This document shows, piece after piece, positions 3,600-54,823 of a stretch of 57,579 nucleotides of DNA. Where the stretch lies: IMG/VR virus record IMGVR_UViG_3300025769_000133, positions 1-57,579 of that record, one strand, 5' to 3'. How positions within the stretch are numbered: the first letter of the stretch is position 1; each line of letters opens with the position of its first letter. Position numbers and translations under genes: made by a program. This DNA is from a virus. Taxonomy: Duplodnaviria > Caudoviricetes. The notes below the pieces were generated by a model. That model searched no databases, was not told the DNA's origin, and saw only the letters and a program-made list of their open reading frames with translations.

Positions 3600-4327
3600 A
3601 GAAAGAAAAGATAATAGAAATGCTAAGAGAAGATAAGCATTACTACGGTGACTTTGGTAAACAGTATTTAAGTAATTCAGATATATCTACATTACTTAAA
3701 AATCCATTAGCTTTAAAAGAACCTAGTAAGTCAAATGCTCACTTCTTAGTAGGAGGCTATTTTCACACTGCTATATTAGAACCAGATAAACTTAAGAATT
3801 TTAAGATTATTGATTCTAGTAGCAGAAACACTAAGGTCTATAAAGAAATGTCCGGTGGTGAAATGTGCTTGCTACAGCATGAGGTTGACTTAGTTGACAA
3901 TCTAATTTCTACAATGCTAAACAATAAAGTTTGCAGAGACCTCATCGCAGAAGAAAAAGGCGAATATGAAGTACCTGCAATAACTGAGTTGTTCGGTCAA
4001 ATGTGGAAAGGTAAAGCAGACGTTGTTAATCACAACGAAAAATTAATAATAGATCTTAAAACAACTTCTGATCTTGATAACTTTAAATGGAACGCTAAAA
4101 AATATAATTATGATTCTCAAGCTTACATTTATAGAAAACTATTTGGTTATGAATTTATATTTATAGCAATAGATAAAAAATCAGGTCAAATAGGTTTGTT
4201 CGACTGTTCTGATAAATTTTATAATTCAGGTATGGAAAAAGTTGAGAAAGCATCAGAAGCTTACGATCTATTTTATAACACAGAGGGATTTGACCCTCAC
4301 CAATATTTTATAAACCAAACCCTATAA
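3596..4327 (+). CDS. PD-(D/E)xK exonuclease (RecE/exonuclease VIII-like)
   Basis: LSNSDI, GGYFHTAILEP, KGKAD...IIDLKTT, YNYDSQAYIY; adjacent to Erf. Confidence 0.82.
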   Translation: MKKEKIIEMLREDKHYYGDFGKQYLSNSDISTLLKNPLALKEPSKSNAHFLVGGYFHTAILEPDKLKNFKIIDSSSRNTKVYKEMSGGEMCLLQHEVDLVDNLISTMLNNKVCRDLIAEEKGEYEVPAITELFGQMWKGKADVVNHNEKLIIDLKTTSDLDNFKWNAKKYNYDSQAYIYRKLFGYEFIFIAIDKKSGQIGLFDCSDKFYNSGMEKVEKASEAYDLFYNTEGFDPHQYFINQTL

Positions 4328-4655: not shown

Positions 4656-6368
4656 ATGCAAGTCGAACAAACAGAGATCAATGGTTTTCAAATTGAAAAC
4701 TTTAATCAGCACGGCTTAGAAGCAGGTAAAACGCAGGGGATTTGTCCCCTGTGTTCGTCTTCTAGGAAACCTGAGAATAAGAAAGCTAAATGTGCTTCTT
4801 ATGATTGGGAGCGTGGTCTCGGTACTTGCCATAACTGTGATAGCAGTTTTCAACTACACACATACAAACGTAAAGGTAAAGCTGAACGTGAATATGTTAT
4901 GCCTGAAGTTAAAAAGGTTGATCTTGTAGTTGATAAAACGTTAGAATGGTTTAAGACTAGAGGAATATCTAAGGATACACTAGATGAATTAAAAGTTAGT
5001 GTTGGTAAAGAATATATGCCTCAGACCGGCAAAGCCGAGAATACTATACAGTTTAATTATTATGTAGGTGGACAACTTACTAACGTTAAATACAGAGATG
5101 GTAGAAAAAACTTTAAGCTTTATAAAGGAGCTGAAAAAGTATTTTATAACATAGACAATATTGTAGGTCATGATACCTGTGTGATAGTTGAAGGTGAAAT
5201 GGATGTTTTAGCTTTACACGAAGCAGGTGTACCAAATGCAATATCAGTTCCAAATGGAGCTACACTTAACACGAACAATCTAGACTATTTAGACAACTGT
5301 ATTGATTATTTTGATGATAAGTCTAAAATAATTATTGCAGTTGATTCAGATGCACCGGGACAAGCCCTACAGACTGAATTGATACGTAGACTTGGAGCTG
5401 AGACTTGTTATATAACTACGTTTGATGATTGCAAAGATGCTAATGAGTATTTAGTTAAGCACTCTAGTAAGGAGCTATTGTCACGTATTACAAATGCAAA
5501 ACCTGTACCGTTAGAAAACGTTACTACATTTAGAGATATAGAAGATGAAATTACAGACTTTGTTAGAAATGGTTTTAAGCGTGGTCACACTATTGGCCTT
5601 GATAACTTTGATAGTATTTTTAGCACATATACTAAACAGTTTATCACAGTTACAGGAATCCCTAGCTCTGGTAAGTCAGATTTTGTAGATCAAATGGTTG
5701 TAGGTTATAATAAAGAGTATGAATGGAAGACAGCGTTTGCTTCACCTGAAAATGCTCCTACATATTTACATGCACACAAGTTAATGCGTAAAGTATGGGG
5801 TGATATGCCTGACAAAGGAGATATTGGTGGAGATAAATGGAATCAAGTAGCTGAACATGTTAATGATAACTTTTTCTTTATTGATATGGAACGTTACACT
5901 CTTGAGTCTGTATTACGTAAAGGAGCTGAGCTCGTGAAACGTAAAGGTATTAAATGTCTAGTTATTGATCCATTTAATAAAGTTAGAGATGTTGACTGTA
6001 CAACAGAGGACGTTAACCGTTACACGATGGAATATCTAACTAAGATTGAAACCTTTGCTAAGAAATATGATGTGCTAGTATTTATAGTAGCTCATCCAAC
6101 TAAAATGTATAAAACACAAGATGGTAAAATTGAAGAACCGACTATGTATAATATTAAAGGTGGCGGCGAATGGTACGATGCTAGCTATCATGGTCTTCTT
6201 GTACATCGTGATTATGAGCTTAAGACAACTAAAGTTAAAGTTCTTAAATGTAAATTTCAGAACCTTGGCGAAAACGGTGCTGAAGCACATTTTACGTGGG
6301 AGCCACGCTCAGGATGCTTCATACCGGAAATAAAACCAGAACTAGAAGAAAAAATGCCATGGGAATAA
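4656..6368 (+). CDS. Primase-helicase (T7 gp4/Twinkle-like)
   Basis: Zn finger CPLC...CHNC; TOPRIM IVEGEMD and DSDAPG; Walker A GIPSSGKS; LVIDP; VAHPTK. Confidence 0.93.
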   Translation: MQVEQTEINGFQIENFNQHGLEAGKTQGICPLCSSSRKPENKKAKCASYDWERGLGTCHNCDSSFQLHTYKRKGKAEREYVMPEVKKVDLVVDKTLEWFKTRGISKDTLDELKVSVGKEYMPQTGKAENTIQFNYYVGGQLTNVKYRDGRKNFKLYKGAEKVFYNIDNIVGHDTCVIVEGEMDVLALHEAGVPNAISVPNGATLNTNNLDYLDNCIDYFDDKSKIIIAVDSDAPGQALQTELIRRLGAETCYITTFDDCKDANEYLVKHSSKELLSRITNAKPVPLENVTTFRDIEDEITDFVRNGFKRGHTIGLDNFDSIFSTYTKQFITVTGIPSSGKSDFVDQMVVGYNKEYEWKTAFASPENAPTYLHAHKLMRKVWGDMPDKGDIGGDKWNQVAEHVNDNFFFIDMERYTLESVLRKGAELVKRKGIKCLVIDPFNKVRDVDCTTEDVNRYTMEYLTKIETFAKKYDVLVFIVAHPTKMYKTQDGKIEEPTMYNIKGGGEWYDASYHGLLVHRDYELKTTKVKVLKCKFQNLGENGAEAHFTWEPRSGCFIPEIKPELEEKMPWE

Positions 6369-6661
6369 AATATATAATAGCAGCGTTATTGTTTACAAGT
6401 TGTAATGTAAGTTCTAAAGTATTAGAAAAATACAACAATGATAACTTCAATTACGTAGGCAGAACAGTAACATATGAAGATGAAGTTGTAGCTAAATTAA
6501 AAGCTATTGAATTATCATACGACGGAGGTGAATTAATATATGAAGCCACGTTTGAATTAACAAACAGCAAATACAACCCTTATGCTATCAACGTTATTAA
6601 AATAGCTAGAATGCATCCCAAAATGAAAGACTGGGATATAGAGGTTGAACTTAAGTATTAA
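6359..6661 (+). CDS. Putative lipoprotein, 100 aa
   Basis: ATG 6359 gives MGIKYIIAALLFTS-C, a signal peptide II with lipobox. Confidence 0.6.
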   Translation: MGIKYIIAALLFTSCNVSSKVLEKYNNDNFNYVGRTVTYEDEVVAKLKAIELSYDGGELIYEATFELTNSKYNPYAINVIKIARMHPKMKDWDIEVELKY

Positions 6662-6918
6662 TGACACCTAAAAAGGTTGATTGGAAACCACCTTTATGGG
6701 ATAAATCAAACACTGAAGCATACCAATGGTGTATAAAACATGGTATCAAAATATACTCCGTGCCTTGCGGTAAAGGTTTTAGCAACAAGACTTGTTGGAT
6801 AGAGGTAAATGTAAACGGAAGAAAACAATTAAGTCCAGGAACTTATGGTCCAACAGAATTATGGCCTAAAGTTATGGAACTATATAAATTTTATTATGAT
6901 AAAAACATTCGCAAATAA
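6661..6918 (+). CDS. Hypothetical protein, 85 aa
   Basis: ORF track; TAATG coupling with upstream gene. Confidence 0.65.
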   Translation: MTPKKVDWKPPLWDKSNTEAYQWCIKHGIKIYSVPCGKGFSNKTCWIEVNVNGRKQLSPGTYGPTELWPKVMELYKFYYDKNIRK

Positions 6919-7609
6919 ATTTAGAAATGCAGACGATGCTTTTTCATATTGGTATCAATGCATAGAACACTATGGTACTGAATTTGCAGGTACAAAAGCT
7001 TTATTTAATATAGGTTTTGAAATGGAAAAGCCAGACCAAATAGATATCAAACAGTCATGGCGTAACTGGAAAAAAGACTATGCGTCAGCAGAGTTTCAAT
7101 GGTATTTAACAGGTGATCCTAACATTAGCAAGTTAGGAGATATATACGGTAAAGTACCTAAGATATGGACTAAGATGGCTAATGAGCTTGGTCAAGTTAA
7201 TTCTAATTATGGGGCACAATGGGAAAGACGTGGTCAATTAGACAAAGTTATTAAAATGCTAAGACGTAACCCAGACACTAGACAAGCTACGATATCTATA
7301 TATGATGGCAAAGAAATGGATCAATATAAATATGATACACCTTGTACCTACGCAATACAGTTCACAGTTGTAAACGACAAACTTAATATGTGTGTGACGA
7401 TGCGATCTAATGATCTCTGGTACGGTTTTTGTAATGATCAGTATTGTTTTGCAAGACTGCAGCAAATGGTTGCAGAGGAAACAGATTACGAACTAGGATC
7501 TTATTTTCATTTTGCACATAATTTACATTTGTATGAAAAAGATTTAGGAAAGTTCTTACCGCAAAAGCCTGATAATCTGCTACAAAGAAAACACGACATA
7601 TATGGATAA
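6896..7609 (+). CDS. Thymidylate-synthase-fold enzyme with dCMP hydroxymethylase-like active site
   Basis: NSNYG, TRQA, DTPCT (catalytic Cys at 7343), MRSNDLWYGFCND, HFAHNLHLY. Asp at the position of E. coli ThyA Asn177. ATG 6896 is the likely start. Confidence 0.85.
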   Translation: MIKTFANKFRNADDAFSYWYQCIEHYGTEFAGTKALFNIGFEMEKPDQIDIKQSWRNWKKDYASAEFQWYLTGDPNISKLGDIYGKVPKIWTKMANELGQVNSNYGAQWERRGQLDKVIKMLRRNPDTRQATISIYDGKEMDQYKYDTPCTYAIQFTVVNDKLNMCVTMRSNDLWYGFCNDQYCFARLQQMVAEETDYELGSYFHFAHNLHLYEKDLGKFLPQKPDNLLQRKHDIYG

Positions 7610-8429
7610 AGAAATAACATATTATTTATACCACATCCCGGGTAAAAAGATTGGTGTAACACGTAATCTTATAGACAGAGTTACAACACAACAGGGATAT
7701 ACCCTAGACGAAATAGAAGTTCTAGATCAAAGCACAGATATCGATTATATATCAAGCCGCGAGTTAGAACTTCAAAAGTCTTACGGCTATCGAGTCGACC
7801 TTAAACCTTATAAACAATTATTTAAAATGAAAATTAACGCAACCGAACAAACCAGCACATTTCCTGTACCTTTAAACAAATTAAAAGGTAGGTTAATGGA
7901 TTCAATAGGATTAACATGGGAAACAATCCATGGTAAATTTGAAGTAACTAAAGAAACAATAGAATGGATAATACAAAATGCATCCGTGTCTATGTTTAAC
8001 AAAAATAGATCATACATATATAACAAAGCTTTCTATGAAAAATTTCTTAACGAAGCTAAGTCAGAAGCTAAGTTATTTTACGAACAGCTTACGAACAGAT
8101 CAAACTCTACTAATGGTGTTTCATATGTTCAAACAGATAACAGGTTTGAATTAATAAGACAATGGGCAAAAGATAGAAACTTATATGATAAAGGCGATAC
8201 AAAAACACAGTTTGCTAAACTAATGGAAGAGTCTGGCGAATTAGCTAGAGCTATATTAAAAGATGATAAGACAGAATTTGTAGATGCTATCGGGGATATG
8301 GTTGTTGTATTAACAAACCTAGCTCATTTAGGCGGTACTAACATTGAAGACTGTATTGACTCAGCGTACGACGTTATTAGAAAGAGAACTGGTAAAATGG
8401 TTAACGGAACATTTGTGAAAAATGACTAA
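7602..8429 (+). CDS. Fusion of N-terminal GIY-YIG-like domain and C-terminal MazG-like NTP pyrophosphohydrolase
   Basis: N-term YYLY...KIGVTRNL..R...RE. C-term KLMEESGELARA...DAIGDMVVVL..LA...AYDVIRKRTGKMVNGTFVK. Confidence 0.75.
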   Translation: MDKEITYYLYHIPGKKIGVTRNLIDRVTTQQGYTLDEIEVLDQSTDIDYISSRELELQKSYGYRVDLKPYKQLFKMKINATEQTSTFPVPLNKLKGRLMDSIGLTWETIHGKFEVTKETIEWIIQNASVSMFNKNRSYIYNKAFYEKFLNEAKSEAKLFYEQLTNRSNSTNGVSYVQTDNRFELIRQWAKDRNLYDKGDTKTQFAKLMEESGELARAILKDDKTEFVDAIGDMVVVLTNLAHLGGTNIEDCIDSAYDVIRKRTGKMVNGTFVKND

Positions 8430-8709
8430 GAAAGAAATAAAATTTAGAGACCCTGTAGTTGAACGCGTTGTTGATAAGTTCGTGGAACGATCAGACGTAG
8501 GGTTTGAAAAATATAAAAAAACACTAGACACTGAACGTAAGACTGGTGTTAAAGACTTAGCTGGATATCTTAATGATGTACAGGAAGAGTTAATGGATGC
8601 GATATTGTATATTCAAGCAGCACGTGAAGAGCTGTCTGAAGCTAAAGACAAAGTCTACGGCGAAAGTATTAACGGTTTACCATATTATGTCTCGGATATT
8701 GCGTCGTAA
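8422..8709 (+). CDS. Small all-alpha nucleotide pyrophosphohydrolase-like protein
   Basis: RSDVGFEKYKKTL...LNDVQEELMDAILY (EExxD acidic helix). Confidence 0.55.
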   Translation: MTKKEIKFRDPVVERVVDKFVERSDVGFEKYKKTLDTERKTGVKDLAGYLNDVQEELMDAILYIQAAREELSEAKDKVYGESINGLPYYVSDIAS

Positions 8710-9460: not shown

Positions 9461-11323
9461 ATGGAGATATCAAATAAAATATTGTCCGACATAACAGTTT
9501 ACATGAAATATGCAAAATATATTCCTGAACTAAACCGTAGGGAGACGTGGGATGAGTTAGTAACGCGTAATATGAACATGCATATTAAAAAGTATCCTGA
9601 CTTAATAGATGAAATTAAAACAACGTACAAATTAGTATATGAAAAAAAGATTTTACCGTCTATGCGCTCACTTCAATTCGGAGGTAAACCGATTGAAATA
9701 TCACCTAATCGTGTCTATAATTGCGCTTATCTACCTATTGATCATATTGAATCGTTTAATGAGGTAATGTTTCTATTACTAGGTGGTACTGGTGTAGGTT
9801 ATTCTGTTCAAGATCACCATGTTAAAAAATTAGACCCGGTTAACAAGCCTTATAGTAAAAGAACTAGAAGATTTTTAATAGGAGATTCAATTGAAGGTTG
9901 GGCTGATGCTATTAAAGTACTAATGAAATCATATCTTGGTGACAAAAGAAGTTCACGTGTAGAGTTTGACTACTCTGATATACGCCCTAAGGGTGCAATG
10001 TTAGTAACGTCTGGTGGTAAAGCACCTGGACCTCAACCACTTAAAGAATGTATAGTAAAGATAACAGGAGTCTTAGACTCAAAGGAGGATGGCGATACGC
10101 TCTCCACTATAGAAGTACACGATATAGTTTGCCATATTGCAGACGCCGTATTAGCTGGTGGAATACGTCGAGCAGCTTTGATAAGTCTGTTCTCAGCGGA
10201 CGACGAGGAGATGATCTCTTGCAAGTCTGGAAATTGGTGGGAAACAAATCCACAAAGAGGAAGAGCTAATAACTCTGCTGTTCTTATGAGACATAAAATT
10301 ACTAAAGAGTTTTTTATGGATCTATGGAAACGCGTTGAACTATCAGGTGCAGGTGAACCTGGAATATATTTTAATAATGATAAAGACTGGGGTACAAACC
10401 CTTGTTGTGAAATAGCTTTACGACCATATCAGTTTTGTAACTTATGTGAAGTAAACGCTAGTGATATTGAATCACAAGAAGATTTAAATAACAGAGTGAA
10501 AGCAGCTGCGTTTATAGGAACGTTACAAGCTGGATATACGGACTTTCACTATTTAAGAGACGTATGGAAAGAAACAACAGAAAAAGACGCGTTAATCGGA
10601 GTATCGATGACGGGGATAGGATCTGGCACGGTGTTAGGATACGACATGAAGAAAGCCGCTCAATTAGTAAAACGAGAAAACGCAAGAGTCGCGAAAGCGA
10701 TTGGAATTAATTCTGCAGCACGATGCACAACAGTGAAGCCTGCAGGGACAACATCTCTGGCATTGGGAACATCATCCGGTATTCACGCATGGCATAATGA
10801 TTATTACGTTCGTAGAATCAGGGTTGGTAAAAACGAAAGTATATACAAATACTTAGTTGAAAATCATCCATTATTAGTAGAAGATGAGTTTTTTAGACCT
10901 CATGATACCGCTGTGATTAGTATACCGCAGAAAGCTCCTGAAGGATCTATACTTAGAACTGAATCTCCATTTCAATTACTTGAACGTATAAAAAAGGTAG
11001 CTACTGAATGGGTGGCACCTGGCCATAGAAAAGGCAGTAACACTCATAATGTGTCTGCCACGGTTAGTTTAAAAGCTGAAGAGTGGGAAACAGCTGGTGA
11101 ATGGATGTGGGATAACAGAAAATACTACAATGGTTTGTCTGTACTACCGTTTGACGGTGGAACTTATACTCAAGCTCCTTTCGAGGATATTGATGAAGGA
11201 ACTTACATAAATAAGTTGCAACATTTAACTGATATAAATCTAGAAAATGTACTCGAATCCGAAGACAACACTGATCTTTCTGGTGAGCTTGCTTGTGCTG
11301 GTGGTGCTTGTGAAATCACTTAG
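9461..11323 (+). CDS. nrdJ: Class II (adenosylcobalamin-dependent) ribonucleotide reductase
   Basis: RRETWDE, LPSMRSL, YNCAY, GGTGVG, TNPCCEI..QFCNL, TTVKPAGT, C-terminal CAGGAC; no adjacent beta subunit gene. Confidence 0.9.
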   Translation: MEISNKILSDITVYMKYAKYIPELNRRETWDELVTRNMNMHIKKYPDLIDEIKTTYKLVYEKKILPSMRSLQFGGKPIEISPNRVYNCAYLPIDHIESFNEVMFLLLGGTGVGYSVQDHHVKKLDPVNKPYSKRTRRFLIGDSIEGWADAIKVLMKSYLGDKRSSRVEFDYSDIRPKGAMLVTSGGKAPGPQPLKECIVKITGVLDSKEDGDTLSTIEVHDIVCHIADAVLAGGIRRAALISLFSADDEEMISCKSGNWWETNPQRGRANNSAVLMRHKITKEFFMDLWKRVELSGAGEPGIYFNNDKDWGTNPCCEIALRPYQFCNLCEVNASDIESQEDLNNRVKAAAFIGTLQAGYTDFHYLRDVWKETTEKDALIGVSMTGIGSGTVLGYDMKKAAQLVKRENARVAKAIGINSAARCTTVKPAGTTSLALGTSSGIHAWHNDYYVRRIRVGKNESIYKYLVENHPLLVEDEFFRPHDTAVISIPQKAPEGSILRTESPFQLLERIKKVATEWVAPGHRKGSNTHNVSATVSLKAEEWETAGEWMWDNRKYYNGLSVLPFDGGTYTQAPFEDIDEGTYINKLQHLTDINLENVLESEDNTDLSGELACAGGACEIT

Positions 11324-11362: not shown

Positions 11363-11917
11363 ATGCAAAAAAGAAATAAAAAACTGTGCTTAATATTTCT
11401 TATTTATATATTGATTAGCTGTTCTAAAATAACAGACAAATACAAAACTTTTACTATAAAAGAGGGTAAACACAGGTCGACAAGTGCCTTAAATTATAGT
11501 AAAGACACAGTGTTCGGTTGGAACATTGAATTTGATTCAAGCGCTATCTACAAAACTGTGGATAGCCTTAATCAATATGATATAAATAAATTAATAGGTT
11601 GGAGTGACTGTGGTACTAGCCACATGGATAACTCTATAAGATTTGGATGGAGATGGTTAAACGACAGTTTAGAAATACACTGGTTTAAACATGAATATGG
11701 AAAATTTAGTTTTGATCTTATAAAAAGAGTTAGTATATGTGAAGAACACTACTATGAGTTAACTATATCAACTTGGGATTACAAAATGGGAGTAGACGGA
11801 ACATATGTACATGTGCCTAGGAATTGTGTACAAAATAAAAGAAAATATATGCTATATCCTTATTTTGGAGGAAATGAAACAGCTCCTCATGATATAAGAA
11901 TTAAAATCAAAAATTAA
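11363..11917 (+). CDS. Putative lipoprotein with beta-rich domain
   Basis: KRNKKLCLIFLIYILIS-C signal peptide II; aromatic beta-strand pattern ending YPYFGGNETAPHDI. Confidence 0.65.
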   Translation: MQKRNKKLCLIFLIYILISCSKITDKYKTFTIKEGKHRSTSALNYSKDTVFGWNIEFDSSAIYKTVDSLNQYDINKLIGWSDCGTSHMDNSIRFGWRWLNDSLEIHWFKHEYGKFSFDLIKRVSICEEHYYELTISTWDYKMGVDGTYVHVPRNCVQNKRKYMLYPYFGGNETAPHDIRIKIKN

Positions 11918-12563: not shown

Positions 12564-12697
12564 TATTTTTTTCTCTTTTTAGGTCTACAACTTCCCTTTG
12601 CTCCAGGTTTAGTACCAGGTACTCTTTCATATCCTAATCCGTAAGGACCACCTGTTTTCCAACAAGTGTTTTTTCTTCCTGTTTTTTTTCTTGCCAT
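12563..12697 (-). CDS. Small basic protein, 44 aa (MARKKTGRKNTCWKTGGPYGLGYERVPGTKPGAKGSCRPKKRKK)
   Basis: Read by hand; TAATG overlaps at both ends. Confidence 0.75.
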   Translation of the reverse strand: MARKKTGRKNTCWKTGGPYGLGYERVPGTKPGAKGSCRPKKRKK

Positions 12698-15600
12698 TAT
12701 TTCTGTAATTCTAGTATTTTTCTAACTCTATCACCTTCGTACTTTAAGGCTTTTATTTCTTTCTCAGATAAACCAAGAGACTTAAGTGAGTCTTTTTGTT
12801 CAGCTGCAGGTAATTCATATAATTCTAATTCTTGTTTATTTCTTTTTTCTACAGGTACTCTATTGTTTTTAAAACTAGTGTTTTCTGTAAAATTAACCTT
12901 TTTAGGTTTAGTTTGTTTTGGCATAGCTTGTTTAGGCTTAGCTTCAGTTTTTGGTTTAGGCTTTTCTTCTGCTTTTTCAACTTCTACTTTTTCATCCTCA
13001 ACAACTATTGGTTCTGTTATTTCTTCTTCTTCTTTTTGTATACTTTTTTCAGTTGGTATTTTAGAAGTATATTTATTGCCAGAAGATTTTTCAGCTTTTA
13101 ATATAGCTTCAACTCTATCGCCCTGTTTTTTCATACCATCTATCTCATCTTGCGAATATCCATGCTGTCTTAAGATATCTTCTTGCTCCGCTTTATTATA
13201 TAAACTAGGGTTTTCTAAAGCTTTGTAGTAATGTTTTTCATCACTTTCTACATCTTTTCTTTGATCTTGTTGTGATTTAGATTCTAATTGCCACTCAGAC
13301 CAACCCATTAATAAAGCTACTCTTTTCCAATTTTCTTGATCTTGAGCTAAAGCATCTTTAACATTTATCATTTTTTGCAGTAATCTATCTAAAGGTATAT
13401 TTGTTACTGAAGCTGTTAACAAAGCACCTGACATGTATAAAGGATTATCAACACTAAAATAATCTTTCATTTTAGGACTATCTTCGTTGTACTCATATGT
13501 GTTCATGCCTCTAACAAACTTAGATACTTTAACATCTACAGGAGGAGCTATGTTTAAGGCTTCAAAAACTGCTTTATAATACTCAGGTCTTGGTTTTTGA
13601 GTTCTATCATATATATCTAAACCAACATCTTTTATCGCTGCAACTATTGATCCACCAACACCCATACCTCTAAGTAAACTAGTTAACATACCGTCTAAAG
13701 TATTTAATGTTTTTTCATCTAGTTCATCTTCATCACCATTTCCTATAGCAGCAAAAACAGCTTGTTGAAGAGCGTTAAACATGATATTTTGTAAAGCTCC
13801 ATAATAAGCTATTCTTGAGATATTACTTTTCCAATCACCTCTACCGTTAGCTAAGTCAGATATTGCTTTACCTATTATTCTATTGTACTGCATAGGTGTA
13901 TTAGCAAATGCAAGTATAGTTCTACCTAAACCACCAGCTTGTTGAGAACTAACTTCCATGGCATCAGAAGACTGTTGAGCTTCTCTTGACAATGCTGTCC
14001 ATTCTTCGTAGGCTTGAGCAGAAGCTTCATCTTCACTCATACCTTTTTTAGTTAAATCTTTTATTCTATTTCTATAAAAAGTAGCACCACCTGAAGCAAT
14101 AGCGAAACTATCAGCAACTTGAGTTATACTAAATCCTTTTCTTAAAAGTAAATTTAAAAAAGCTTTAGGTTTATTACTTTGATTATGTGTTGCATCGAAT
14201 ATTTCAGATTCTGATATATTTATTTTATTACCTCCTCTTCTATCAACTAAGAAATCAGAGTTAAATAAGTTCATAAAATCTTTCCAATACTGAGGTTGGT
14301 TAGCAAACGCCGCCGCTGCTTTAGCTGGATTATTGAAACTCCAATTTATATAGTTAGCTGCAGACAGTGTTTGTAGTATACCCGATCTCATGTTAAAGAA
14401 CATAACCGCACCAACAGAATTATTTAACCAGTCGTAAAATTTATTTTCTTGTGAACTATTACCTATTCTTCTGTTTCTACCAGACTTCATTCTTCTAAGC
14501 ATGTCCTCAAAAGATTTTCTATATTTAGTTCCATATTGATACTCAATAGCATTCATTAATTTACTATCATATCTAGACCCATTGTCTTTACCAAATATAG
14601 TTTCTATATTTTGATTCCATTCACTAAGTAACCTTGCTCTAGTTATTCTACTAACTCCCTGCATTAAGTCTCCCATCATTGAACCAGCTCCCCATTCTAA
14701 ACCTGGATAATAATAACCATCTCCTTTAGTTATATTAACTAACTGATCTGCCATTCTTTTTACAGCAGGATTATTACGAGCCATAGATCTTATTTTTTCC
14801 ATGGTAGTTTTAGGAACTCCATCTGCTTGAATACCTTGATTATCCCAAGCTAATATTCTAATAGCATCTTCATATGTGTAACCACCAAGCCCAGGCGCTT
14901 GTGCGTTTAGTTTAGGTATTGCTTTTCCTTTACCTACAAAATTATCTAATGTAGCATTAAAGTCTGCGAGTAAAGAATTCTTAAAAGCAGCTAGATCATT
15001 AAGAGCTCTAGTATATGGTTTAACTAAGTTATCTTTTAAAAACTCAAAATCTTCATTACCTTCTTGACCTTTACCTAAAAACTTATATAATAAACCAGTG
15101 AAGTTTTGGGTAGATGAAGGCGCCATTGGATTTTCAAACCTTTTACGACCTTTAATTTGTGCTTTTATATTAGATATATCTTTAATAGTTTCAGGATCTT
15201 TCTTAGCTTTTTTAGCTACCATTTCAAATAACCTATTAGCTATTTTTTCACCATCTAAAGCAAATCTCTCTTTAGCTTGTTGAGTTTTAGATTTAACATC
15301 TATTATGTCTAACACATCGCTAACAGCTTCTACATTTGGTAAGTGATCATCAGCAAAATAAAAGTCGTTATAATCTTCGTCTATATATTTACCTATAAAC
15401 CACTCGGCTTTTGCTTGAGGCGAACTATTACCTAATCCTGTTATATTTTCTAAAGGTATATCTACACCTTGAGATTTTAACCACTCGTGAATTGCTTTTG
15501 CTGATTCTGGAGCTCTAGCTGTAAGTATGAATATATCTCTTTTACCTTTTGCATTTTTCATTTGTTTAAGTAAGTCAAACAATGGGCCTTGCTTTCCTTC

Positions 15601-18600
15601 AACAACTCTGTTAAAATCACTAAAATCAAACTCTCCACCTTGCTCTCTTATTTTATCTCCGTCTTTTGCAAACTCTTCAGCAGTTAATTCACCTTTAGTA
15701 CCATCTGGCATTGTGTAAAACACCTTACTATTAGTGTTAGCTATAGTATCATCAAAATCAAATACTCTAGCCTTTTTAGGTTTTGTCTTTCTTTTATTTC
15801 TTGCCTTTTGAGTTAATGCGTCTAAGCTTTTCATCTTACTTAAAACTTCTGGACCTGTTAAATCACCTTCTAATACAACAGGTGCGTTGGTATTCTCTAA
15901 GGCTAATCTATCTTTGCTTTTTGGTTTTTGAGTATCTTCAATTGATTTTATTACATCTTCATTTTGATCAACTACTTCTTGTATAGTTTCTGCAGATACA
16001 GTAGCTTCAGCAGGATCAAAAGTTTCTGTTGGATTAGTTATACTAACTCTATCCTCTGTTTCACCCATCGACTCATACCTAATATTTTGAGCAGTACTAG
16101 TAGAACCTAATAAAGAATCTGTCATTTCAGCACGTACTTTAGGAACATGTGATTGGCTATAGTTAGTAAGTCTTAAAGCTATTTTGTTTTTTAAAGATTC
16201 TATTATTCCTTCTTTTTCTAAATTTGTTTGAGCTTTTCTTAATTTATCAGCTGCTTCCAAAACATCTATAGCCATGTCAGCCATTAAGTTTGAAGCAACA
16301 TCAATGTGTTCACCCTTGTATTTGAGTAAATCTGCTATCTTAGCTTCTATTTTAGCTTTTTTATTTACACGAGTGTTTTTATGAAATTCTTCAGCAAATT
16401 CTTTAGCCTCATCGTAAGAAGCGTGGTTAAAATTAATAACCCAGTCATTATCTTTTTTCTGTGCATCGCTAAGAGAGTTTGAAGTCTCTCCAGTTGATAA
16501 ATTTACAAAAGCAGCTTGAGATTTGTCATTAACCTCTATATCATTAACTCTAGATAAAGCTCGTAAAGACTTTGTATTATTAGTCATAGATTCTAACCAA
16601 CGTAGAAAACCTTTGATGTTTTTACTATCAGAAGCTATACTTTCCGCGGCTTTAGTCATTAGATATTCTATAGCTTTAGTATTAACTTCGTTTGCTTTTT
16701 GTATTTTATCTAATATACTACCTGACTTTACAGTGCCATCCTCGTTTAAACCTAATTGCTCTAGTTTTTCCTCTTTAGATATATCTTTATCTAATATCGT
16801 TTCAGCTCTACCTAGAACACCGTAACCAGCATTCATAAGTTCTATATCTTCAGGGTTGAAATCAAGTTCTTCTTGGTTTTTTAACTTGTTTATAACTTTG
16901 TTTACTTCATCTAATTGACTTTTAAATGGACCAAACCCACCACCTCTTTTCTTACCGCCATCTAAGTAATTGTATATGTAACTAAAAAAGTTTGCTCCTT
17001 TTAAGCTTTCAACTAACTTGCCAGGTAATTTAGAAATAAAATCCATTTGAAACTTATGCATCTCTTTCATAGATGTTTCAGTTCCCTTACCTTTAGACAT
17101 TGTTTTGTTCTCAAAAATATCGTTTGCTTCGTTTTTATAGTCTTGTGGCAAATTAGAATCGTCAATTTTACTTTTAAGTCTTTTCTTATAACCACTAACA
17201 GCGTCTCTAAATAAAGCTTTCAAAGGTTCTATAACATCATCAAACATTTCAAGCATTTCTTCACTAAAGTTTTTACTTAACTTAGTTTCTAAAACATCTA
17301 TCTTATCACCATCTTTACCAGCTTCTCTAACTGCATCAGCAAAAGTTTGATATAGTTTTCGTTGTATTTTTTCAGCAACACCATCTAAAGCAAATCTACT
17401 ATCAGGATTTTTATCTATAACCTCAGCTACTTCATTTATAGTAACTCTAGCTTGATTAAGTAGTTCGTTTCTTTCATTATACATTTCCATAACTTCAGGA
17501 TCAGATAAGACTTCCATAGTAGCGTCTTTACCTAATTCTTTAGCTAATAATGAAACTAAACCGTTTTTCTTGCTATAAGTAGTTCCTTTTTCTGGATTTG
17601 TAAAAGATTCAATAAACTTCTTTTTATTGTAAGGTTGTTTTTCATAAAGAAAATAACCAGCTGTTCTAGCTGTCGCAGCTTCTTTTTTATCTATTAAACC
17701 TTCAGAAACTAGTTTGTCAAATTCTGTAGTACTTAACCTTCTACCTGGTTTATTAAACTCAGGGTATGATTTATTAAATGCTGATTGAGATATCGCTTCA
17801 TAAACCTCTTCACCGTAAGTTTCTAAAAATGGTTCTACACCACCCATTTCATCTATTAGTAATCTAACAGATTGTTCACTTTGGGTTGCATAAGACTTTT
17901 CTAAAGCTTTTTTAAGTTTATTTGTTTTTACTTCTGGTAACACACCTTTGAAAGTATTTACAACACCTTCTTTTACTTTTTCAAATATATCGCTACCTTC
18001 TAATATACCCATTGCTTTTCGCATGTTTATTTTAGCTGCTTTTTTAGGCTCTACTTTTTCTAAACTTTCTTCAAGATTGCTATCTGTTACAAAAAGACTT
18101 GGTCCTTCTTCAGTATCTCTTTGTTCTCTAATATCTTTTTGAATAAGTGGATCAACAACTTGTTGCCATCTAAGAATTAAATCGTTCTTAACTTTTAATC
18201 CAAACGGCATATCTTTAAACTTCTTTTTACGTTTAAAAAATGCGTTATATATATTAGGATATTCAGTACTTCTTAAAGCTTCTTCTATTTCTGATCTAGG
18301 TATAGAGTAAGATAACTTCTCTCCATCTTTTGTCTCAACGGTACCTGTATATTCATTTCCAGTCATCTTAGAATTAACTACAAATTGAACTATAGCTTCC
18401 TTGTTGTTAGCATCTAATCTATTTTCAGCTCTCTGTTTAGCACCTGGACCACTATTAGGATCTTCTATAGTTGCAACGTCTTCAGCATTTTGTATACCTT
18501 TATTTAATTCTTTTATTCTTTCTTGAAGTCTAGATATTTTGTCTTTGTTTTTATCTTTATCCTTTATAAGATCTTTTATTTGACTTATTATCTTTTTCTT

Positions 18601-21600
18601 TTCAGCTTCATTATCTATTAAAGCAAACCTATCTGCATCAACTTCTTCACCTTGACCAATTGGCTCTAAAATACTTTTTGGTTGTTTTCTTTTAGTTTTC
18701 TTAGTAACTGGTGGTGGAGTAGGTTTTTTAGGTATTGTTTTCTTAATCTCTTCTTTAGCAAGTTCCGCATCTTCACTCATTAAATCTAAAAGCTTTAAGA
18801 AATCAACATCTGACGCTTCTTGAGATTCTAATATACCATCTGAGTTTACACTTAATTCAGTAGAAACAATGTCTTTTAACTTGTCTAAATCAATAGATTC
18901 AAGTTTTCCTTCTCTCATGAAATCTCTAGCATTAGCTATAATTTCATCAGCTTGCATTTGCTTGTTCTCTGGATCAAGTTTTATATAAGCATTTATTAAA
19001 TTCTTAAATTCTTGTTCAGACTCTGGACTATCAAACTTTAAAGCACCAGTTTCAAGATCTTTAGCTATTTGTTCTGCTATTTTCAATGTAATGTCATCTC
19101 CAAACTCTTCTTCTAGTACATCCACAAAGTAATGATCTAATTCATGATTAAACTTCGGAAGTGTTTTATTAGCTCTATTAAGTAAGTAAGCTTCTCTAGA
19201 GAATATAAATACTTTATCTTTTTTAATATACTTAGCTTGTTGAGTTATTCCGTCTGATTTTAAAGTAGTTCCGATAGATTCAGCATAAGCTTCAGCCTCT
19301 TCGTTTGTATCGAATATTTTTACATCTACATCTTTATCTTTTGCATTTTCTATTTTATTCAAAAATTCATTTTGACTTTCAGTAAATTGTTGAGATTTAT
19401 CACTAGTAAATTCTTGTTTAACATCTCCTTCTTCAGTTGTTGTAGCTTCAAACAATTGAGCTAATTGATCTTCAATTTCTTTTATTCTTTGCTCTGTTTC
19501 TAGTTTTATATTATAAGGCAACTCACCTTTTAATTTTTCTTTTAAATCATATAACTCACTTTCTAACATTACTTGCTGAGCAGCTACATCATCGCTTAGT
19601 GTTATATCTACTTTTTGAAGTATGTCATGAGTTTTTAACAAAGAAGCTTTTTGCTCATTAAACTTTATCTCTGCTTCTTCAATTTTCTTTTTCTTTACAC
19701 TTTCGTCTACAGCGCTGTTTGTTATTTTGTCTATTGTTTGCGTTCTTAAAACTTCTAATTGTTTCATGTAGACATCAACAACTTCTTTGCTTTTTAATGT
19801 AGACCATTCTGCAACGTGGTTTTCTAGCCATTTCTGTCTATTTCTAACTGATTTAACATTTGATATCACGTTTACAGAAACCATACCTTTGTTAACAATA
19901 CCCATACCCAAAAAAGAAACTTTAGCGGTTTCAATAAGTCTATTGTTATATTCCTCACTACCAAAATCAGGACTGTTAAATAAAGTATCTTCCCAACCTT
20001 TTTCTATTAATTTATTATCTTGAGATTTTTCGATGAGCATATTAACCATTTCCTGAATGGTCTCATCAGCTACATTAAAAGCTAAACCATTTACATATGT
20101 TATAGCTCCTGCTTTTACTAATTGATCAATTTCGTTTTTTACAAATTGTTTTAAACCTATACCTTTAATTTCATTTTTAGCAGCTCTACCAGTTATATAA
20201 GTAGCGAGTCTACTCATAGCTCGTGAGTTGCCTAAAGCTTCTATACCTATTTTATCCAAGTAAGCTTCTATACCTGGTTTAAAAAGCTCTATAATACTTC
20301 TGTCCATAGGAGATAGATTAACTTTCTTACCTGTTTTAGCTTCTAATTCCTTTATACTTTCATCTAAAGAAACCACAGAGTCAACGTGTAATCTAGTTAA
20401 AATACTTATAGGAGTATTTTCTACAGCACTTAAAGTTATAGCTTGTCTTTTGTTTATTTTACCAGCTTTATATGCGTCCATTATCTGCGCATTCTTTCTA
20501 CCTAGCCATTTTAGTCTAGATGGATTATCAACCCAGTTAACTAATCTACCAACTGTGCTAGCTTTACTAGCTCCAGCTGTAGCTACAGTTACTGCTATAT
20601 CAAAAGCAACATCAGTGACTAAGCCTAAAACTTGATACCCAGTTGTATCCCAATCTTGTAAATCATAACTCTGTGCAAATCCACCAGGTTTTATAGTAAG
20701 TTCGTCCTCAATAAATTGATCAACAGCAGCATTCATTGCACTAATGGCATCTTGAGTAAGATCTACCATTTGAGCTTCTAAAGCTGCAAGTTCATCTGCG
20801 CCAACACCTTCTAATATAGCTTCAGTAAGCATGTGTTGTAATTTCGTTATTTCTAACCCTATACTCCCTAATCCAGGTAGTATTTTAGCACCATTAGCTA
20901 GTATTCTGTTGAATACGAAAGCTACATCTTGAGCCCATGTTTGACCTTTTTCACTTATAGCATCGGTCATGTTTTCCATTTCTTGCTCTGCTGCTTTTTG
21001 AGCGCTGTTTAAACTTTGTATTGTTTTGGTTAACATGTTCTTAGAAAAGTCTATCTTATCATTAAGTTTTGACATTTCATCATGAAGACCTATTTGATCA
21101 ACCTTGTTCTCAACCTGTAACCCGCTCATTGGTAGTTGCCCTCTAGAACCTGAAAAATCACCAAGAAAATTATCTCTTTCTCTAATTATTAAAGGTAAAC
21201 CGCCATCAGTAGTTGCGTCTTTAGGGTATGTAAAACTAATTTCATTACCTGGTGAAGTTAAAACTGTTTGCTCTATACCAGCCGCATTAGCTGGTGGGTT
21301 ATTAAAAGAAGTGTTGTCTTTATATATCTGATTACCATCAGCGTCTAAATACTGTACACTATATAAACTTATTGGAGTACTGTTATAAGTAGCTAAAACT
21401 TGTTTATACTTATCTTTTATAACATTATTGTTGTCTATCCTATTATTTATTTCTTCACCTAGTTTAACATACTGTCTTCTAGTTTTACTTCCTTTTTCTT
21501 TACTTTTTGGATCTTTTTCTAGCTCAGCAAATTGTTGTTTTAATTTTTTAGTTTCAGTCTTATAGCTTTGAAAAGAACTAGCCATTTCATTAAGTACATT

Positions 21601-43838: not shown

Positions 43839-44113
43839 TTACTACGCCCTTCTGCAAAACCTTTAAAAGCTCTTTCTTCTTTTACTTCTTCTTTAGGTTT
43901 TCCTTCTAATAAGTTTTCTTCTTCTTCTAGTCTTTTTAATATTTCAAAAGCATCAAATATTGCTAGTTTTTTAGTTGCAGCGGCGTTCTTGAGTCGGTCC
44001 GCAGTCACATCCTCGCCCGTATCTACAATCGGTTCCTTTGCTACTTTTATAAGCTCCTTCACTGCTAATTGCCCAGCTTGGATTATACTCTTTTTCGTTT
44101 CCTTCGTATTCAT
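43835..44113 (-). CDS. Putative terminase small subunit
   Basis: Helical 92-aa protein ATGA-coupled to terL; RLKNAAATKKLAIFDAFEIL. Confidence 0.55.
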   Translation of the reverse strand: MNTKETKKSIIQAGQLAVKELIKVAKEPIVDTGEDVTADRLKNAAATKKLAIFDAFEILKRLEEEENLLEGKPKEEVKEERAFKGFAEGRSK

Positions 44114-44654
44114 GCTTAATTAAAATGTCTTTTGATTTCATACAATATAATAATTGATTGTCAACAACGAATTCCCATTGTCTTAAATCAGGAAAGCTAA
44201 CTAAATCACCATCATTTATACCTAATGACTTTAGTTTTTCGTTTCCATATTTAATAATACCTTTGTTTGGTATTACTTTATCACCTAACTTTTCAGACTT
44301 TAAAGGTTTTATAAAACACCTGTCTAAAAATGCATTATTAACTCCGTTGTTATATAAATACACCTGATCAGGTGCACAAAAATATAAATCCTCTTTAAAA
44401 TAAGATCTACTGTTTTGTTGGACTCCTTTCATATTGTAGAATCTTCTAAAGACATTATGATGAACATATACTATATCACCAGGTTTTATTGGTAGATCAT
44501 AAGCGCTTGGAACACTTATCACCTTAGCCTTTTTATTTATTACTTTAAACTCTTCTATTTTAGTGTTTAACACTAAGGATTTATCACCAACTTTTTTTTC
44601 GTTGTTATATCTTTCGCCAACTGGAGTTATTATGTAGTCATAAAGACTATTCAC
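43971..44654 (-). CDS. GroES-like (probably tandem domain) co-chaperonin-like protein
   Basis: Two GroES-like patterns: DYIITP...AKVISVP...IKPGDIVYV and RCFIKP...GIIKYG...GINDGDLVSF...LYCMKSKDILI. Confidence 0.55.
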   Translation of the reverse strand: MNSLYDYIITPVGERYNNEKKVGDKSLVLNTKIEEFKVINKKAKVISVPSAYDLPIKPGDIVYVHHNVFRRFYNMKGVQQNSRSYFKEDLYFCAPDQVYLYNNGVNNAFLDRCFIKPLKSEKLGDKVIPNKGIIKYGNEKLKSLGINDGDLVSFPDLRQWEFVVDNQLLYCMKSKDILIKHEYEGNEKEYNPSWAISSEGAYKSSKGTDCRYGRGCDCGPTQERRCN

Positions 44655-53028: not shown

Positions 53029-53289
53029 TTATATTACTATTACTATATCTTGTTCTTTAATTACTTTGAACATTTTACTTTCAATTTCAATATTAAAACC
53101 AGCGTGTCTATCATAATAGATTTTATCACCTTTATTTAATAATGTTACATCAGAACCTGGGTTTAATACCTCAGCTTCTTGATATCTAATATCTTCTCGT
53201 TGTTTATCTGACAAGAGTAAACCACCTTTTGTTTCGGTGGTTTTTTCTTGTAGTTCTTTTATTACTATATATTTACCTACTGCTTTCAT
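53029..53289 (-). CDS. groES: Co-chaperonin GroES (Cpn10)
   Basis: MKAVGKYIVIK...TKGGLLL...GDKIYY...VIKEQDIV. Confidence 0.85.
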   Translation of the reverse strand: MKAVGKYIVIKELQEKTTETKGGLLLSDKQREDIRYQEAEVLNPGSDVTLLNKGDKIYYDRHAGFNIEIESKMFKVIKEQDIVIVI

Positions 53290-54823
53290 TTGCTCTTAAA
53301 TTATTAATAACACAATCAGTGGATAATATAGTTGTAGCTACTGAAGCCGCGTTAACTAAAGCACTTTTAGTAACAAGTAATGGATCAATAATCCCTGCTT
53401 TAACCATATTTACTTCTTTTCCTGTAACCACATTTAAACCTTTGTTTTTAACATTGGGATAAACAATTTCAAGACCTGCGTTTGCAAGGATAGTTTCATA
53501 AGGAGCTTTAATTGCTTTTAGCAATACTTTTTCACCTTCAGTCTTAGCCTTTGTATAAACAGACGCATTAAGCAAAGCGATACCTCCTCCTGGAACTATA
53601 CCTTCTTTAATAGCGGCTTTTGTAGCACATATAGCATCTTCTACTCTATCTTTCTTTTCTTTTAACTCTACTTCAGAACTAGCACCAACTTTAACAATAG
53701 CAACCTTACCTGCTAATCTAGCCATTCGCTTTTCTAGTTGAATAACCATGTTAGGGTTTTTTGTTTGCTTTATCTGTTCTTTTAACTCACTTATTATTTT
53801 ATCTATTTCTTCAGAAAAATAATCTTGTTGAATTATAGTTTCAGATGTAGTGCTTACGGCTTTGAAACAACTTCCTAGATGTTCTTCTGTTATAAGATCC
53901 ATATCATCGCCTAAATCCTCATTTATAATAGTAGCACCTGTTATTAAAGATAAGTCTTTTAATGTATTTAACTTGTTTACTCCAAAAACTGGAGCGTCAA
54001 CTACATTAACTTTAATATTGCCTTTCATTTTATTCATGGCTAATGCTGATAAAACAGCTGGCTCCATGTCTGCAATAATCAATAAAGCTTTGTTCTTTTT
54101 TATAACATATTCTAGTACGCCTTGTATTTGCCTTATGTTATCTATCTTGTTTTCTACAATTAATACTAGAGCGTTATCTAATTCTGCTATACCTCTGTCA
54201 TTATTAGTGATAAAGTGAGGATTTTTAAAACCTTTGTCGTATTGAGCTCCATCTACTACTTCTACAACTGTTTTTGGAGCATCGTGTGTTTCCATCATTA
54301 CAACACCAGTCTCGTCAACGGCTTTAAATGCATCAGCAATAATTCGTCCAAGTTCTGTATCATTATTCGCGGATATCGATGCAACTTGGTGGATTGACTC
54401 GCCTGTTACTTCTATTGATATTTTTTCTAAATATTTTATTACAGAATCAACAGCTTTGTTAACGCCTTCTTTAATTGCTCTTATATCTGTTTTTGAGCTT
54501 TTATATGCTTCAGTTAATATAGCGTGTGCTAATACTGTCGATGTTGTAGTTCCATCACCAGCTTCTTTAACGGTTTTTCTAGCTGCTTCTTTTAAAAGCT
54601 TAGCACCCATATTTTCTACTGGATCTAGCAATATAATACTATCTGCTACTGTTACTCCGTCTTTAGTTATTTGAGGGTTTCCTGCGCCGTCTTCTAGTAT
54701 AACACACTTGCCGCTAGCTCCTAAAGTAGAGCTAACAGCTTTAGTGAGTTTCTCTATACCGCTAAATATAGCGGATTTAGCGTCTTCACCGAAGTTAAGA
54801 TGCTTTACTATTGTTTCGTTCAT
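53273..54823 (-). CDS. groEL: Chaperonin GroEL (Cpn60)
   Basis: AVSSTLG, ITKDGVTVA, AGDGTTT, ISANND, EKKDRVEDAICATKAA..EGIVPGGG, GIIDP. Confidence 0.96.
   Translation of the reverse strand: MNETIVKHLNFGEDAKSAIFSGIEKLTKAVSSTLGASGKCVILEDGAGNPQITKDGVTVADSIILLDPVENMGAKLLKEAARKTVKEAGDGTTTSTVLAHAILTEAYKSSKTDIRAIKEGVNKAVDSVIKYLEKISIEVTGESIHQVASISANNDTELGRIIADAFKAVDETGVVMMETHDAPKTVVEVVDGAQYDKGFKNPHFITNNDRGIAELDNALVLIVENKIDNIRQIQGVLEYVIKKNKALLIIADMEPAVLSALAMNKMKGNIKVNVVDAPVFGVNKLNTLKDLSLITGATIINEDLGDDMDLITEEHLGSCFKAVSTTSETIIQQDYFSEEIDKIISELKEQIKQTKNPNMVIQLEKRMARLAGKVAIVKVGASSEVELKEKKDRVEDAICATKAAIKEGIVPGGGIALLNASVYTKAKTEGEKVLLKAIKAPYETILANAGLEIVYPNVKNKGLNVVTGKEVNMVKAGIIDPLLVTKSALVNAASVATTILSTDCVINNLRANESSR

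Follow-up and report, generated by a model that had tools for sequence, protein, structure and literature searches.

The closest described counterpart of the gene considered here is gp42 of phage T4, a hydroxymethylase acting on deoxycytidine monophosphate (dCMP), for which structures are available (246 residues; PDB 1B5D, 6A9A). From its ternary complex, a signature of hydroxymethylation has been reported, namely an Asp or Glu located three residues before the catalytic Cys, where ThyA has a Leu, associated with a Ser-x-Tyr pair. The Asp at this place would activate the water molecule that hydrates the exocyclic methylene, and the T4 D145N variant is reportedly inactive (PMC6400193). In the MetaGPA study, which dealt with 433 environmental thymidylate synthase (TS) sequences, residues 177 and 147 (E. 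coli ThyA numbering) are described as those most associated with cytosine-modified phage contigs, and TS domains as co-occurring with pyrophosphatases of the PRA-PH/MazG type (PMC8670742). According to Lee et al. (2026), the rules attached to positions 143 and 177 are upheld, and D169N marks the flavin-dependent 5-hydroxy-dCMP synthases (PMC13326640). Finally, work on MilA, the CMP hydroxymethylase of mildiomycin synthesis, relates Ser167 and Arg126' to deoxyribose substrates, and Ala and Lys to ribose ones (PMC5175136). TS homologues of the Asp177 type, the residue code, and the association with modified cytosine and with MazG-type enzymes are therefore already in print, and since these elements are established the finding reported here is not a new mechanism. 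It concerns a virus record of IMG/VR (IMGVR_UViG_3300025769_000133; Duplodnaviria, Caudoviricetes) of 57,579 bases, with an estimated completeness of 89%, analysed over its whole length and hereafter called the window. The open reading frame (ORF) 6896-7609 of this window probably encodes, as judged from sequence comparisons, a folate-dependent dCMP 5-hydroxymethylase of the T4 gp42 type that would work with a MazG partner and whose product would enter the phage DNA.

ORF 6896-7609 belongs to the ThyA superfamily. It matches the Pfam model PF00303 (Thymidylat_synt) with an E value of 4.6e-30 (105.1 bits for a cut-off of 24.3) and the T4 gp42 structures with an E value of 9.4e-18, so that the likeness is not due to chance. 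An alternative in-frame ATG occurs upstream, at 6845, and would add 17 residues; the homologues are mostly 235-238 residues long, to be compared with the 237 residues obtained from the start at 6896.

The active site was examined by comparison with reference enzymes, all taken from annotated records and differing in their products: E. coli ThyA and RB69 td (dTMP), Xp12 TS (5-methyl-dCMP), T4 gp42 (5-hydroxymethyl-dCMP), RB69 gp48 (5-hydroxy-dCMP), SPO1 gp29 and Det7 gp108 (5-hydroxymethyl-dUMP). Five annotated phage homologues were aligned as well. With HMMER, the query stretch RSNDLWYGFCND aligns without gaps to the corresponding stretch of E. coli ThyA, which sets Asp181 on Asn177; the same stretch also aligns without gaps to RSNDVVFGFRND of T4 gp42, where Asp181 falls on Asp179. 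A MAFFT alignment of 147 sequences gives the same columns for Asp181. A previous sequence-only reading of this DNA had placed an Asp at the Asn177 position of ThyA by a gap-free alignment, had pointed out a PCT catalytic motif instead of PCH as well as an NSNYG motif, and had noted that T4 gp42 also has an Asp at position 177 and a Cys-Thr motif. The ORF, the codon positions, the alignment and both motifs were all recovered as described, the T4 catalytic motif being MCT.

At the columns of the ThyA catalytic set, the query has Cys150, Glu66, Arg170, Tyr105 and His211/Tyr213 (Cys146, Glu58, Arg166, Tyr94 and His207/Tyr209 in E. coli). At the columns of Asn177, His147, Leu143 and Gln165, it has Asp, Thr, Asp and Met, respectively, and thus departs from the canonical ThyA set. 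Several of the features found instead are those of T4 gp42, which shares with the query the same fold, the RSND motif, the NSNYG motif, the Asp three residues before the catalytic Cys, the Asp at position 177 and the His/Tyr residues for the 3'-OH, for an overall identity of about 24%. In particular, Ser103-Asn104-Tyr105 fills the Ser-x-Tyr pair that, in T4, holds the proton-abstracting water. The main sites and the neighbouring genes of interest are listed in Table 1.

Table 1. Positions in the window of the ThyA-superfamily gene, of its diagnostic residues and of genes in its neighbourhood.
Feature	Positions	Strand	Correspondence or remark
ThyA-superfamily gene, predicted dCMP 5-hydroxymethylase (5-hydroxymethyl-dCMP synthase)	6896-7609	+	237 aa
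Glu66 codon	7091-7093	+	E. coli Glu58, T4 Glu60 (cofactor activation); from alignment, at least 90% conserved
NSNYG motif	7199-7213	+	Ser103/Tyr105 = T4 Ser94/Tyr96; motif identical in T4 gp42
Asp147-Thr-Pro-Cys150-Thr151	7334-7348	+	Asp147 = T4 Asp145, E. coli Leu143; Thr for E. coli His147
Cys150 codon TGT	7343-7345	+	catalytic Cys, E. coli Cys146 column
Thr151 codon ACC	7346-7348	+	E. coli His147 column
Arg170-Ser171-Asn172-Asp173...Gly177...Asp181	7403-7438	+	E. coli Arg166, Ser167, Cys168, Asp169, Gly173, Asn177
Asp181 codon GAT	7436-7438	+	E. coli Asn177 / T4 Asp179 column (cytosine specificity)
DNA primase/helicase, upstream neighbour	4656-6368	+	phrog_239, E 2.8e-86; in 69/80 related loci
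MazG-fusion gene, candidate dCTPase supplying dCMP	7602-8429	+	NTP pyrophosphohydrolase domain of the MazG type at the C-terminus (approximately residues 176-275)
Small conserved ORF	8422-8709	+	95 aa; after the MazG gene in 69/80 related loci
Ribonucleotide reductase	9461-11323	+	phrog_367, E 3.2e-129; in 53/80 related loci, many loci ending short of the gene

The diagnostic residues are strongly conserved in the family. Two sets of homologues were considered: 15 close members, obtained by taking every eighth of 120 listed, and 119 of the 150 best representatives of 50%-identity clusters, the 31 others being shorter than 190 or longer than 400 residues. Asp is present at the 177 column in all 134 sequences (15/15 close members and 119/119 full-length representatives) and at the 169 column in 134/134. 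At the 143 column, it is found in 132/134 (15/15 and 117/119, respectively), and Thr occupies the 147 column in 126/134. In a separate alignment (A1, 80 sequences), R170, D173, G177 and D181 are invariant, while E66, Y105, R129, D147, C150, T151, S171, H211 and Y213 are conserved in at least 90% of the sequences.

A comparison restricted to the 12 positions located within 6 Å of the C5 atom, as listed in PMC13326640, gives 11/12 identities between the query and T4 gp42. A tree was also calculated with a quick run of IQ-TREE, with no bootstrap, from 58 rows (13 named sequences, 5 close members, 40 representatives) and rooted on two true thymidylate synthases. Xp12 TS branches first; the other 55 rows form a single clade, with a Shimodaira-Hasegawa approximate likelihood-ratio test (SH-aLRT) value of 98, which contains all hydroxymethylases as well as the query. 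Within it, the query belongs to a 26-row clade including T4 gp42 (SH-aLRT 95). The AlphaFold model of the ORF has a predicted local distance difference test score of 94.7 and a predicted TM-score of 0.89. In Foldseek searches, the top matches are MilA (TMq 0.82) and T4 dCMP hydroxymethylase (0.72-0.73), with ThyA chains at about 0.7 and the flavin monooxygenase 9iqc at 0.80, and probabilities of 1.00 are reached for many ThyA, dCMP hydroxymethylase and MilA chains. Because ThyA chains and 9iqc score close to MilA and to the T4 enzyme, the fold alone cannot tell these enzymes apart. Taken with the fold, the residues and the tree point to an enzyme that is most likely a dCMP hydroxymethylase. 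The sequence-only reading had proposed action on dCMP with 5-hydroxymethyl-dCMP or 5-methyl-dCMP as product, and had suggested the phylogenetic and profile comparison given here; every sequence-level test available argues for dCMP as substrate, and the evidence as a whole narrows the product to the hydroxymethylated nucleotide.

The gene immediately downstream also bears on this assignment. The TS gene and the MazG gene overlap by 8 nucleotides, over the TS stop codon. A pattern search of IMG/VR stretches gave 522 matches, a relative being encoded in 520 of them; the locus counts refer to 80 loci retained from these. In 77 of these 80 loci, a MazG domain directly follows the TS gene. The domain (MazG/PRA-PH) is carried by the 100 C-terminal residues of the downstream protein, as indicated by Pfam (E about 1e-6) and PHROG (E 8e-35) matches. 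With VIA-align, it gives a Z score of 10.4 with MazG 1vmg, and Z scores of 8.4-9.3 with S-2L MazZ and with the dCTPase RS21-C6/DCTPP1 family, the latter accounting for 8.4-9.2.

The rest of the MazG protein is less easily related to known proteins. Three domains are predicted, a conserved N-terminal part, a middle domain and the C-terminal MazG domain, and the Foldseek and VIA-align matches span residues 170-275 only. Matches to 'Pizza' designer proteins were discarded as spurious, having no significant single stretch. The N-terminal part, of about 65 residues, shows a beta-beta-alpha-beta-alpha pattern and a strongly conserved motif: across 42 sequences there is no variation at Y7, Y10, H11-G14, K16, G18, T20 and R26. 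As a lead only, an Atlas feature search pointed to T5orf172, a family of the GIY-YIG clan that 11-48% of cluster members carry. A nuclease-like module joined to a dNTP pyrophosphatase beside a cytosine-modifying enzyme (7602-8429, + strand) is a candidate combination worth recording in itself. It might unite in one protein the role of T4 endonuclease II, attack on DNA containing deoxycytidine, and that of gp56, removal of dCTP.

On these grounds, the following mechanism may be envisaged. Cys150 would attack C6 of dCMP, and Asp181 would read and protonate the N3/N4 face of the cytosine. Glu66 would open methylene-tetrahydrofolate and the one-carbon unit would join C5. A water molecule activated by Asp147 would then hydrate the exocyclic methylene, replacing the hydride transfer of ThyA, and the products would be 5-hydroxymethyl-dCMP and tetrahydrofolate, not dihydrofolate. 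The MazG-type pyrophosphatase, presumably translationally coupled, would most likely convert dCTP into dCMP, thereby both feeding the hydroxymethylase and depleting unmodified dCTP, and the ribonucleotide reductase encoded a few genes downstream would supply deoxynucleotides. Phosphorylation and polymerisation of the modified nucleotide would have to fall to the host, through its kinases and, for nearly all relatives, its replisome. Phage DNA carrying 5-hydroxymethylcytosine (5hmC) may thereby resist host restriction.

Several observations weigh against a T4-like hydroxymethylase whose product is built into DNA. Concerning the enzyme, the tree included one validated methylase only, and T4 gp42 lies on a long branch, as do RB69 gp48 and gene 27 of Bacteroides phage BF486P2. 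The column of E. coli Arg21, occupied by Lys28 in T4, is a gap in the query, and Gln130 stands at the Arg127 column, in place of the second Arg of the RR pair; the Det7 (ViI-like) enzyme is likewise. The rule distinguishing methylation from hydroxymethylation comes from a single mutagenesis study and from correlation. The nearest TS homologue of a cultured phage, that of BF486P2, is only 43.9% identical and owes its name to automatic annotation. As for the partner, a BLASTP comparison of the MazG protein with T4 gp56 dCTPase is not significant (E 0.051). Concerning later steps, T4 has, besides its gp56 dCTPase, the gp1 dNMP kinase, a polymerase of its own and glucosyltransferases, whereas here the TS gene is linked to a MazG-type enzyme alone and no kinase, polymerase or transferase was found. 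T4 needs its own dNMP kinase, gp1. In the window, neither phrog_139 nor phrog_761 gives a match and no P-loop kinase motif is seen. Gene content was also assessed in 36 relatives rated at least 90% complete by CheckV (G001-G036), each having exactly one copy of PF00303 (36/36). In these 36 genomes, matches to these PHROGs, in the search for dNMP or thymidylate kinases, were limited to three weak ones (E about 3e-4), which were not counted as kinases, all of them lying inside a giant ORF; in the window, the phrog_415 region of that ORF has a DxDxT motif with no P-loop. A family A DNA polymerase above the cut-off occurs in 1/36 relatives, with none in the window, and a family B polymerase in 0/37 (the 36 relatives plus the window). 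Since a phage DNA polymerase is nearly always absent, host enzymes would have to accept the modified nucleotide. Finally, no glycosyl- or carbamoyl-transferase was detected among the ORFs of the window.

The host-dependent steps from 5-hydroxymethyl-dCMP to DNA are the weakest link, and for this reason a virion DNA made largely with 5hmC is rated below the assignment of the enzyme, at somewhat better than an even chance. The best surviving alternative starts from the same enzyme: 5-hydroxymethyl-dCMP would be made, but would not account for the bulk of the virion cytosine, either because replacement is partial or at trace level, or because the enzyme pair mainly perturbs the host dCTP pool. 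The lack of a detected kinase and the usual lack of a polymerase, in the window as in the relatives, agree with such a view, and TS homologues without a phage kinase are reported to have given only traces of modified base in vivo (PMC13326640). This alternative is nevertheless unlikely in view of the TS-MazG pair being kept in 77 of the 80 loci across a large and diverged lineage, with invariant catalytic residues. Moreover, Asp177 enzymes are reported as enriched on contigs with fully protected cytosines in MetaGPA (PMC8670742).

A second alternative, quite unlikely, is that the enzyme methylates dCMP, as the 5-methyl-dCMP synthase of Xanthomonas phage Xp12 does, the DNA then containing 5-methylcytosine (5mC). 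The ThyA fold and the Asp at the 177 column, which goes with the use of dCMP, are indeed common to the query and Xp12 TS. Furthermore, ThyA N177D mutants methylate dCMP, as cited in PMC8670742, and the Xp12 enzyme together with five metagenomic Asp177 enzymes are reported to make 5-methyl-dCMP (10.1101/2024.12.05.627091). However, Xp12 TS has Pro at 147 and, at 143, Asn where the query has Asp147; no more than 7/12 of its near-C5 positions agree with the query, and it stands outside the clade with SH-aLRT 98, with the reservation that one validated methylase was compared. The gene content argues in the same direction. Methylation oxidises the folate, and dihydrofolate reductase (DHFR) is described in all eight 5mC-type Pamexviruses (PMC9206674), whereas PF00186 has no match in the window and is found in 0/36 relatives. 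Because tetrahydrofolate would be regenerated without DHFR, the absence of this enzyme throughout the lineage fits hydroxymethylation. The sequence-only reading had seen no DHFR gene and had called this weak evidence; the comparison with the Pamexviruses makes the argument slightly stronger than it had judged. In addition, the deaminase acting on 5-methyl-dCTP, presented as the usual partner of such methylases (10.1101/2024.12.05.627091), is not found in the window and occurs in 1/36 relatives. The genus of Xp12, in contrast, combines the enzyme with DHFR and a deaminase pathway.

Much less probable is a synthase of the RB69 gp48 or DLP3 gp80 kind, which would use flavin and O2 to make 5-hydroxy-dCMP as a base for glycosylation. 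In favour of this idea, Asp177, the Cys-Thr motif and an acidic residue at 143 are common to the query and RB69 gp48, and the model fits the solved flavin monooxygenase 9iqc well, as mentioned above. But D169N, the change diagnostic of such synthases, is not seen: at the Asp169 column, where RB69 gp48 carries Asn, the query has Asp173, which does not vary in the family. The near-C5 positions match those of RB69 gp48 at only 6/12, and glycosyltransferase or sugar-nucleotide genes were not detected in the window.

Just as improbable is an enzyme acting on dUMP, whether a hydroxymethylase of that nucleotide or a thymidylate synthase of the ordinary kind. The names given by PHROG, whose families matched by the ORF are called 'thymidylate synthase', and by the JGI annotation would suggest it; besides, the ORF is the sole PF00303 gene of the record and no ThyX was found within the window. 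Against this idea, the query has Asp, not Asn, at 177, lacks His147, Leu143 and Gln165, and lies far under the equivalog cut-offs of ThyA, being below the thresholds of all eight (8/8) thymidylate-synthase models listed in NCBIfam, with a top score of 88.6 bits as against 327. Near C5, it has 6/12 identities with E. coli ThyA, 7/12 with SPO1 gp29 and 6/12 with Det7 gp108. These two validated dUMP hydroxymethylases have Asn at the 177 column, and they form a clade separate from the query. 'Thymidylate synthase' is clearly a misleading name for this ORF, and a check of the residues at E. coli positions 143, 147, 169 and 177 should become routine in annotation. Lastly, a CMP hydroxymethylase of the MilA/BcmA type is argued against by Ser171 and Arg129, at the Ser167 and Arg126' columns, which are of the deoxyribose type, MilA having Ala and Lys there (PMC5175136); MilA (PDB 5JNH, 5B6D), despite being the best structural match and having Asp at 143 and 177, also differs by its extra C-terminal region and its place in bacterial secondary metabolism.

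Returning to the dCMP hydroxymethylase, its closest homologue from a cultured phage is gene 32 of Bacteroides phage BF486P2 and its relatives (GenBank OP172667-72), annotated as deoxycytidylate 5-hydroxymethyltransferase. The identity extends over 88% of the query, 11/12 near-C5 residues match, both sequences fall in a clade with an SH-aLRT of 99, and the host phylum is Bacteroidota in both cases. BF486P2 differs in being a gut phage, in carrying a dUTPase instead of the MazG fusion, and in having a second, divergent Asp177 paralogue; the function of gene 32 is known from annotation alone. The occurrence of two divergent Asp177 paralogues with a dUTPase in this phage (L002:5156-5917, 7989-8669) is noteworthy in itself. 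The MetaGPA homologues of the Asp177 type have the same residues at 177 and 147 and the same association with PRA-PH/MazG domains, and this class is described as statistically linked to protected cytosines. Their contigs are said to carry often a dCMP deaminase or a carbamoyltransferase (PMC8670742), whereas in the present lineage a dCMP deaminase is found in 1/36 relatives, with none in the window, and no transferase was detected.

Two other homologues may be mentioned. Gene 7 of Agathobaculum phage AB434P2 (L020:3838-4500), annotated as a deoxyuridylate hydroxymethyltransferase, has an Asp at the 177 column and, for this reason, more likely uses dCMP. The homologue of Enterococcus phage Planchet is identical to the query at 11/12 near-C5 positions, and the genes grouped with it (L014:3473-8422) include two for glycosyltransferases, one for a nucleotide kinase and one for a dUTPase. 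This cluster looks like a complete pathway to glycosylated 5hmC, in contrast to the minimal set of genes found here.

The TS gene is part of a conserved module that runs from the primase/helicase through TS, the MazG protein, the small ORF and a DUF1064 nuclease to the ribonucleotide reductase. For the 95-residue ORF, sequence searches of Pfam and of the PDB gave no match (best PDB E value 0.68), and only PHROGs of unknown function were retrieved; the acidic helical C-terminal half of the protein may resemble the small all-alpha NTP pyrophosphatases. At the flanks of the module, ORFs 6296-6661 and 11363-11917 (both on the + strand) have lipoprotein-like N-termini and are present in 1/80 and 2/80 of the related loci, respectively. 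RNA and DNA contigs of relatives run from 6367 straight to 6666, bypassing ORF 6296-6661. The two ORFs look like variable accessory insertions of the moron type.

Words of the 9-kb module are carried by 20 coded runs from 12 studies, labelled as marine or freshwater metagenomes. Four runs, all consisting of contigs, were aligned, three of RNA and the best DNA run (X1). Two of the three metatranscriptome runs include contigs, from relatives about 90% identical, that extend from TS across the boundary with the MazG gene, DNA carry-over being possible and no expression level being readable from them. As an example, a 1,376-base metatranscriptome contig covers 6165-6367, 6666-7105 and 7332-7832.

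The similarity of the terminase points to podophages of Flavobacteriaceae, the 87 records matched comprising 68 of Flavobacterium, 15 of Cellulophaga, 2 of Tenacibaculum, 1 Maribacter phage and 1 uncultured. By this criterion, the nearest complete record is MW202828, which has another replication module, with ThyX. A DNA-level search of the phage collection gave only short and distant matches. No published account of this enzyme lineage of marine Flavobacteriia phages was found by title or beginning of abstract, supplements and subscription journals being outside this search. What is new is thus an abundant, uncultured lineage of marine Flavobacteriia phages with an unusually minimal gene set. 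It is tempting, if speculative, to imagine that a two-gene kit operates in these marine podophages of about 60-70 kb, in which the hydroxymethylase and the three-domain T5orf172/GIY-YIG-like-MazG dCTPase protein would replace C by 5hmC without a phage-encoded dNMP kinase, DNA polymerase or glycosyltransferase; we regard this full scheme as doubtful. If the prediction made for the enzyme and its product holds, widespread marine phages of Bacteroidota, at least 520 IMG/VR stretches encoding a relative, would carry 5hmC or a derivative of it. This would matter for escape from restriction and CRISPR, for recovery by some library and enzymatic methods, and for the abundances read from metagenomes. 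The lineage would also offer a natural test of 5hmC DNA made without a phage kinase or polymerase.

Avoidance of restriction sites was evaluated with maximal-order Markov observed/expected ratios for 16 palindromic 4-mers and 40 palindromic 6-mers, and gave no clear pattern. The strongest deviations concern CATG (z -3.8) and GGTACC and GAATTC (z -2.5), and GATC is not avoided. Because of the many tests and of the G+C content of 33%, this comparison is uninformative.

Other features of the lineage deserve mention. A recognisable DNA polymerase is mostly missing, yet a primase/helicase, a ligase, an annealing protein of the Erf type, an exonuclease, a ribonucleotide reductase and a sigma-factor-like protein are encoded. 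The giant ORF referred to above (12697-23787, - strand) has 3,696 residues, its relatives having 3,609-3,711, and may correspond to an injected virion protein. Its sole recognisable segment (residues 2664-2866, about 15145-15867) matches phrog_415, 'polynucleotide kinase' (E 1.6e-8), and the DxDxT motif found there is typical of HAD phosphatases. Finally, the window encodes a GroEL (53273-54823, - strand; phrog_5725, E 1e-136) and a GroES-like co-chaperonin (43971-44654, - strand; phrog_13932, E 9e-22).

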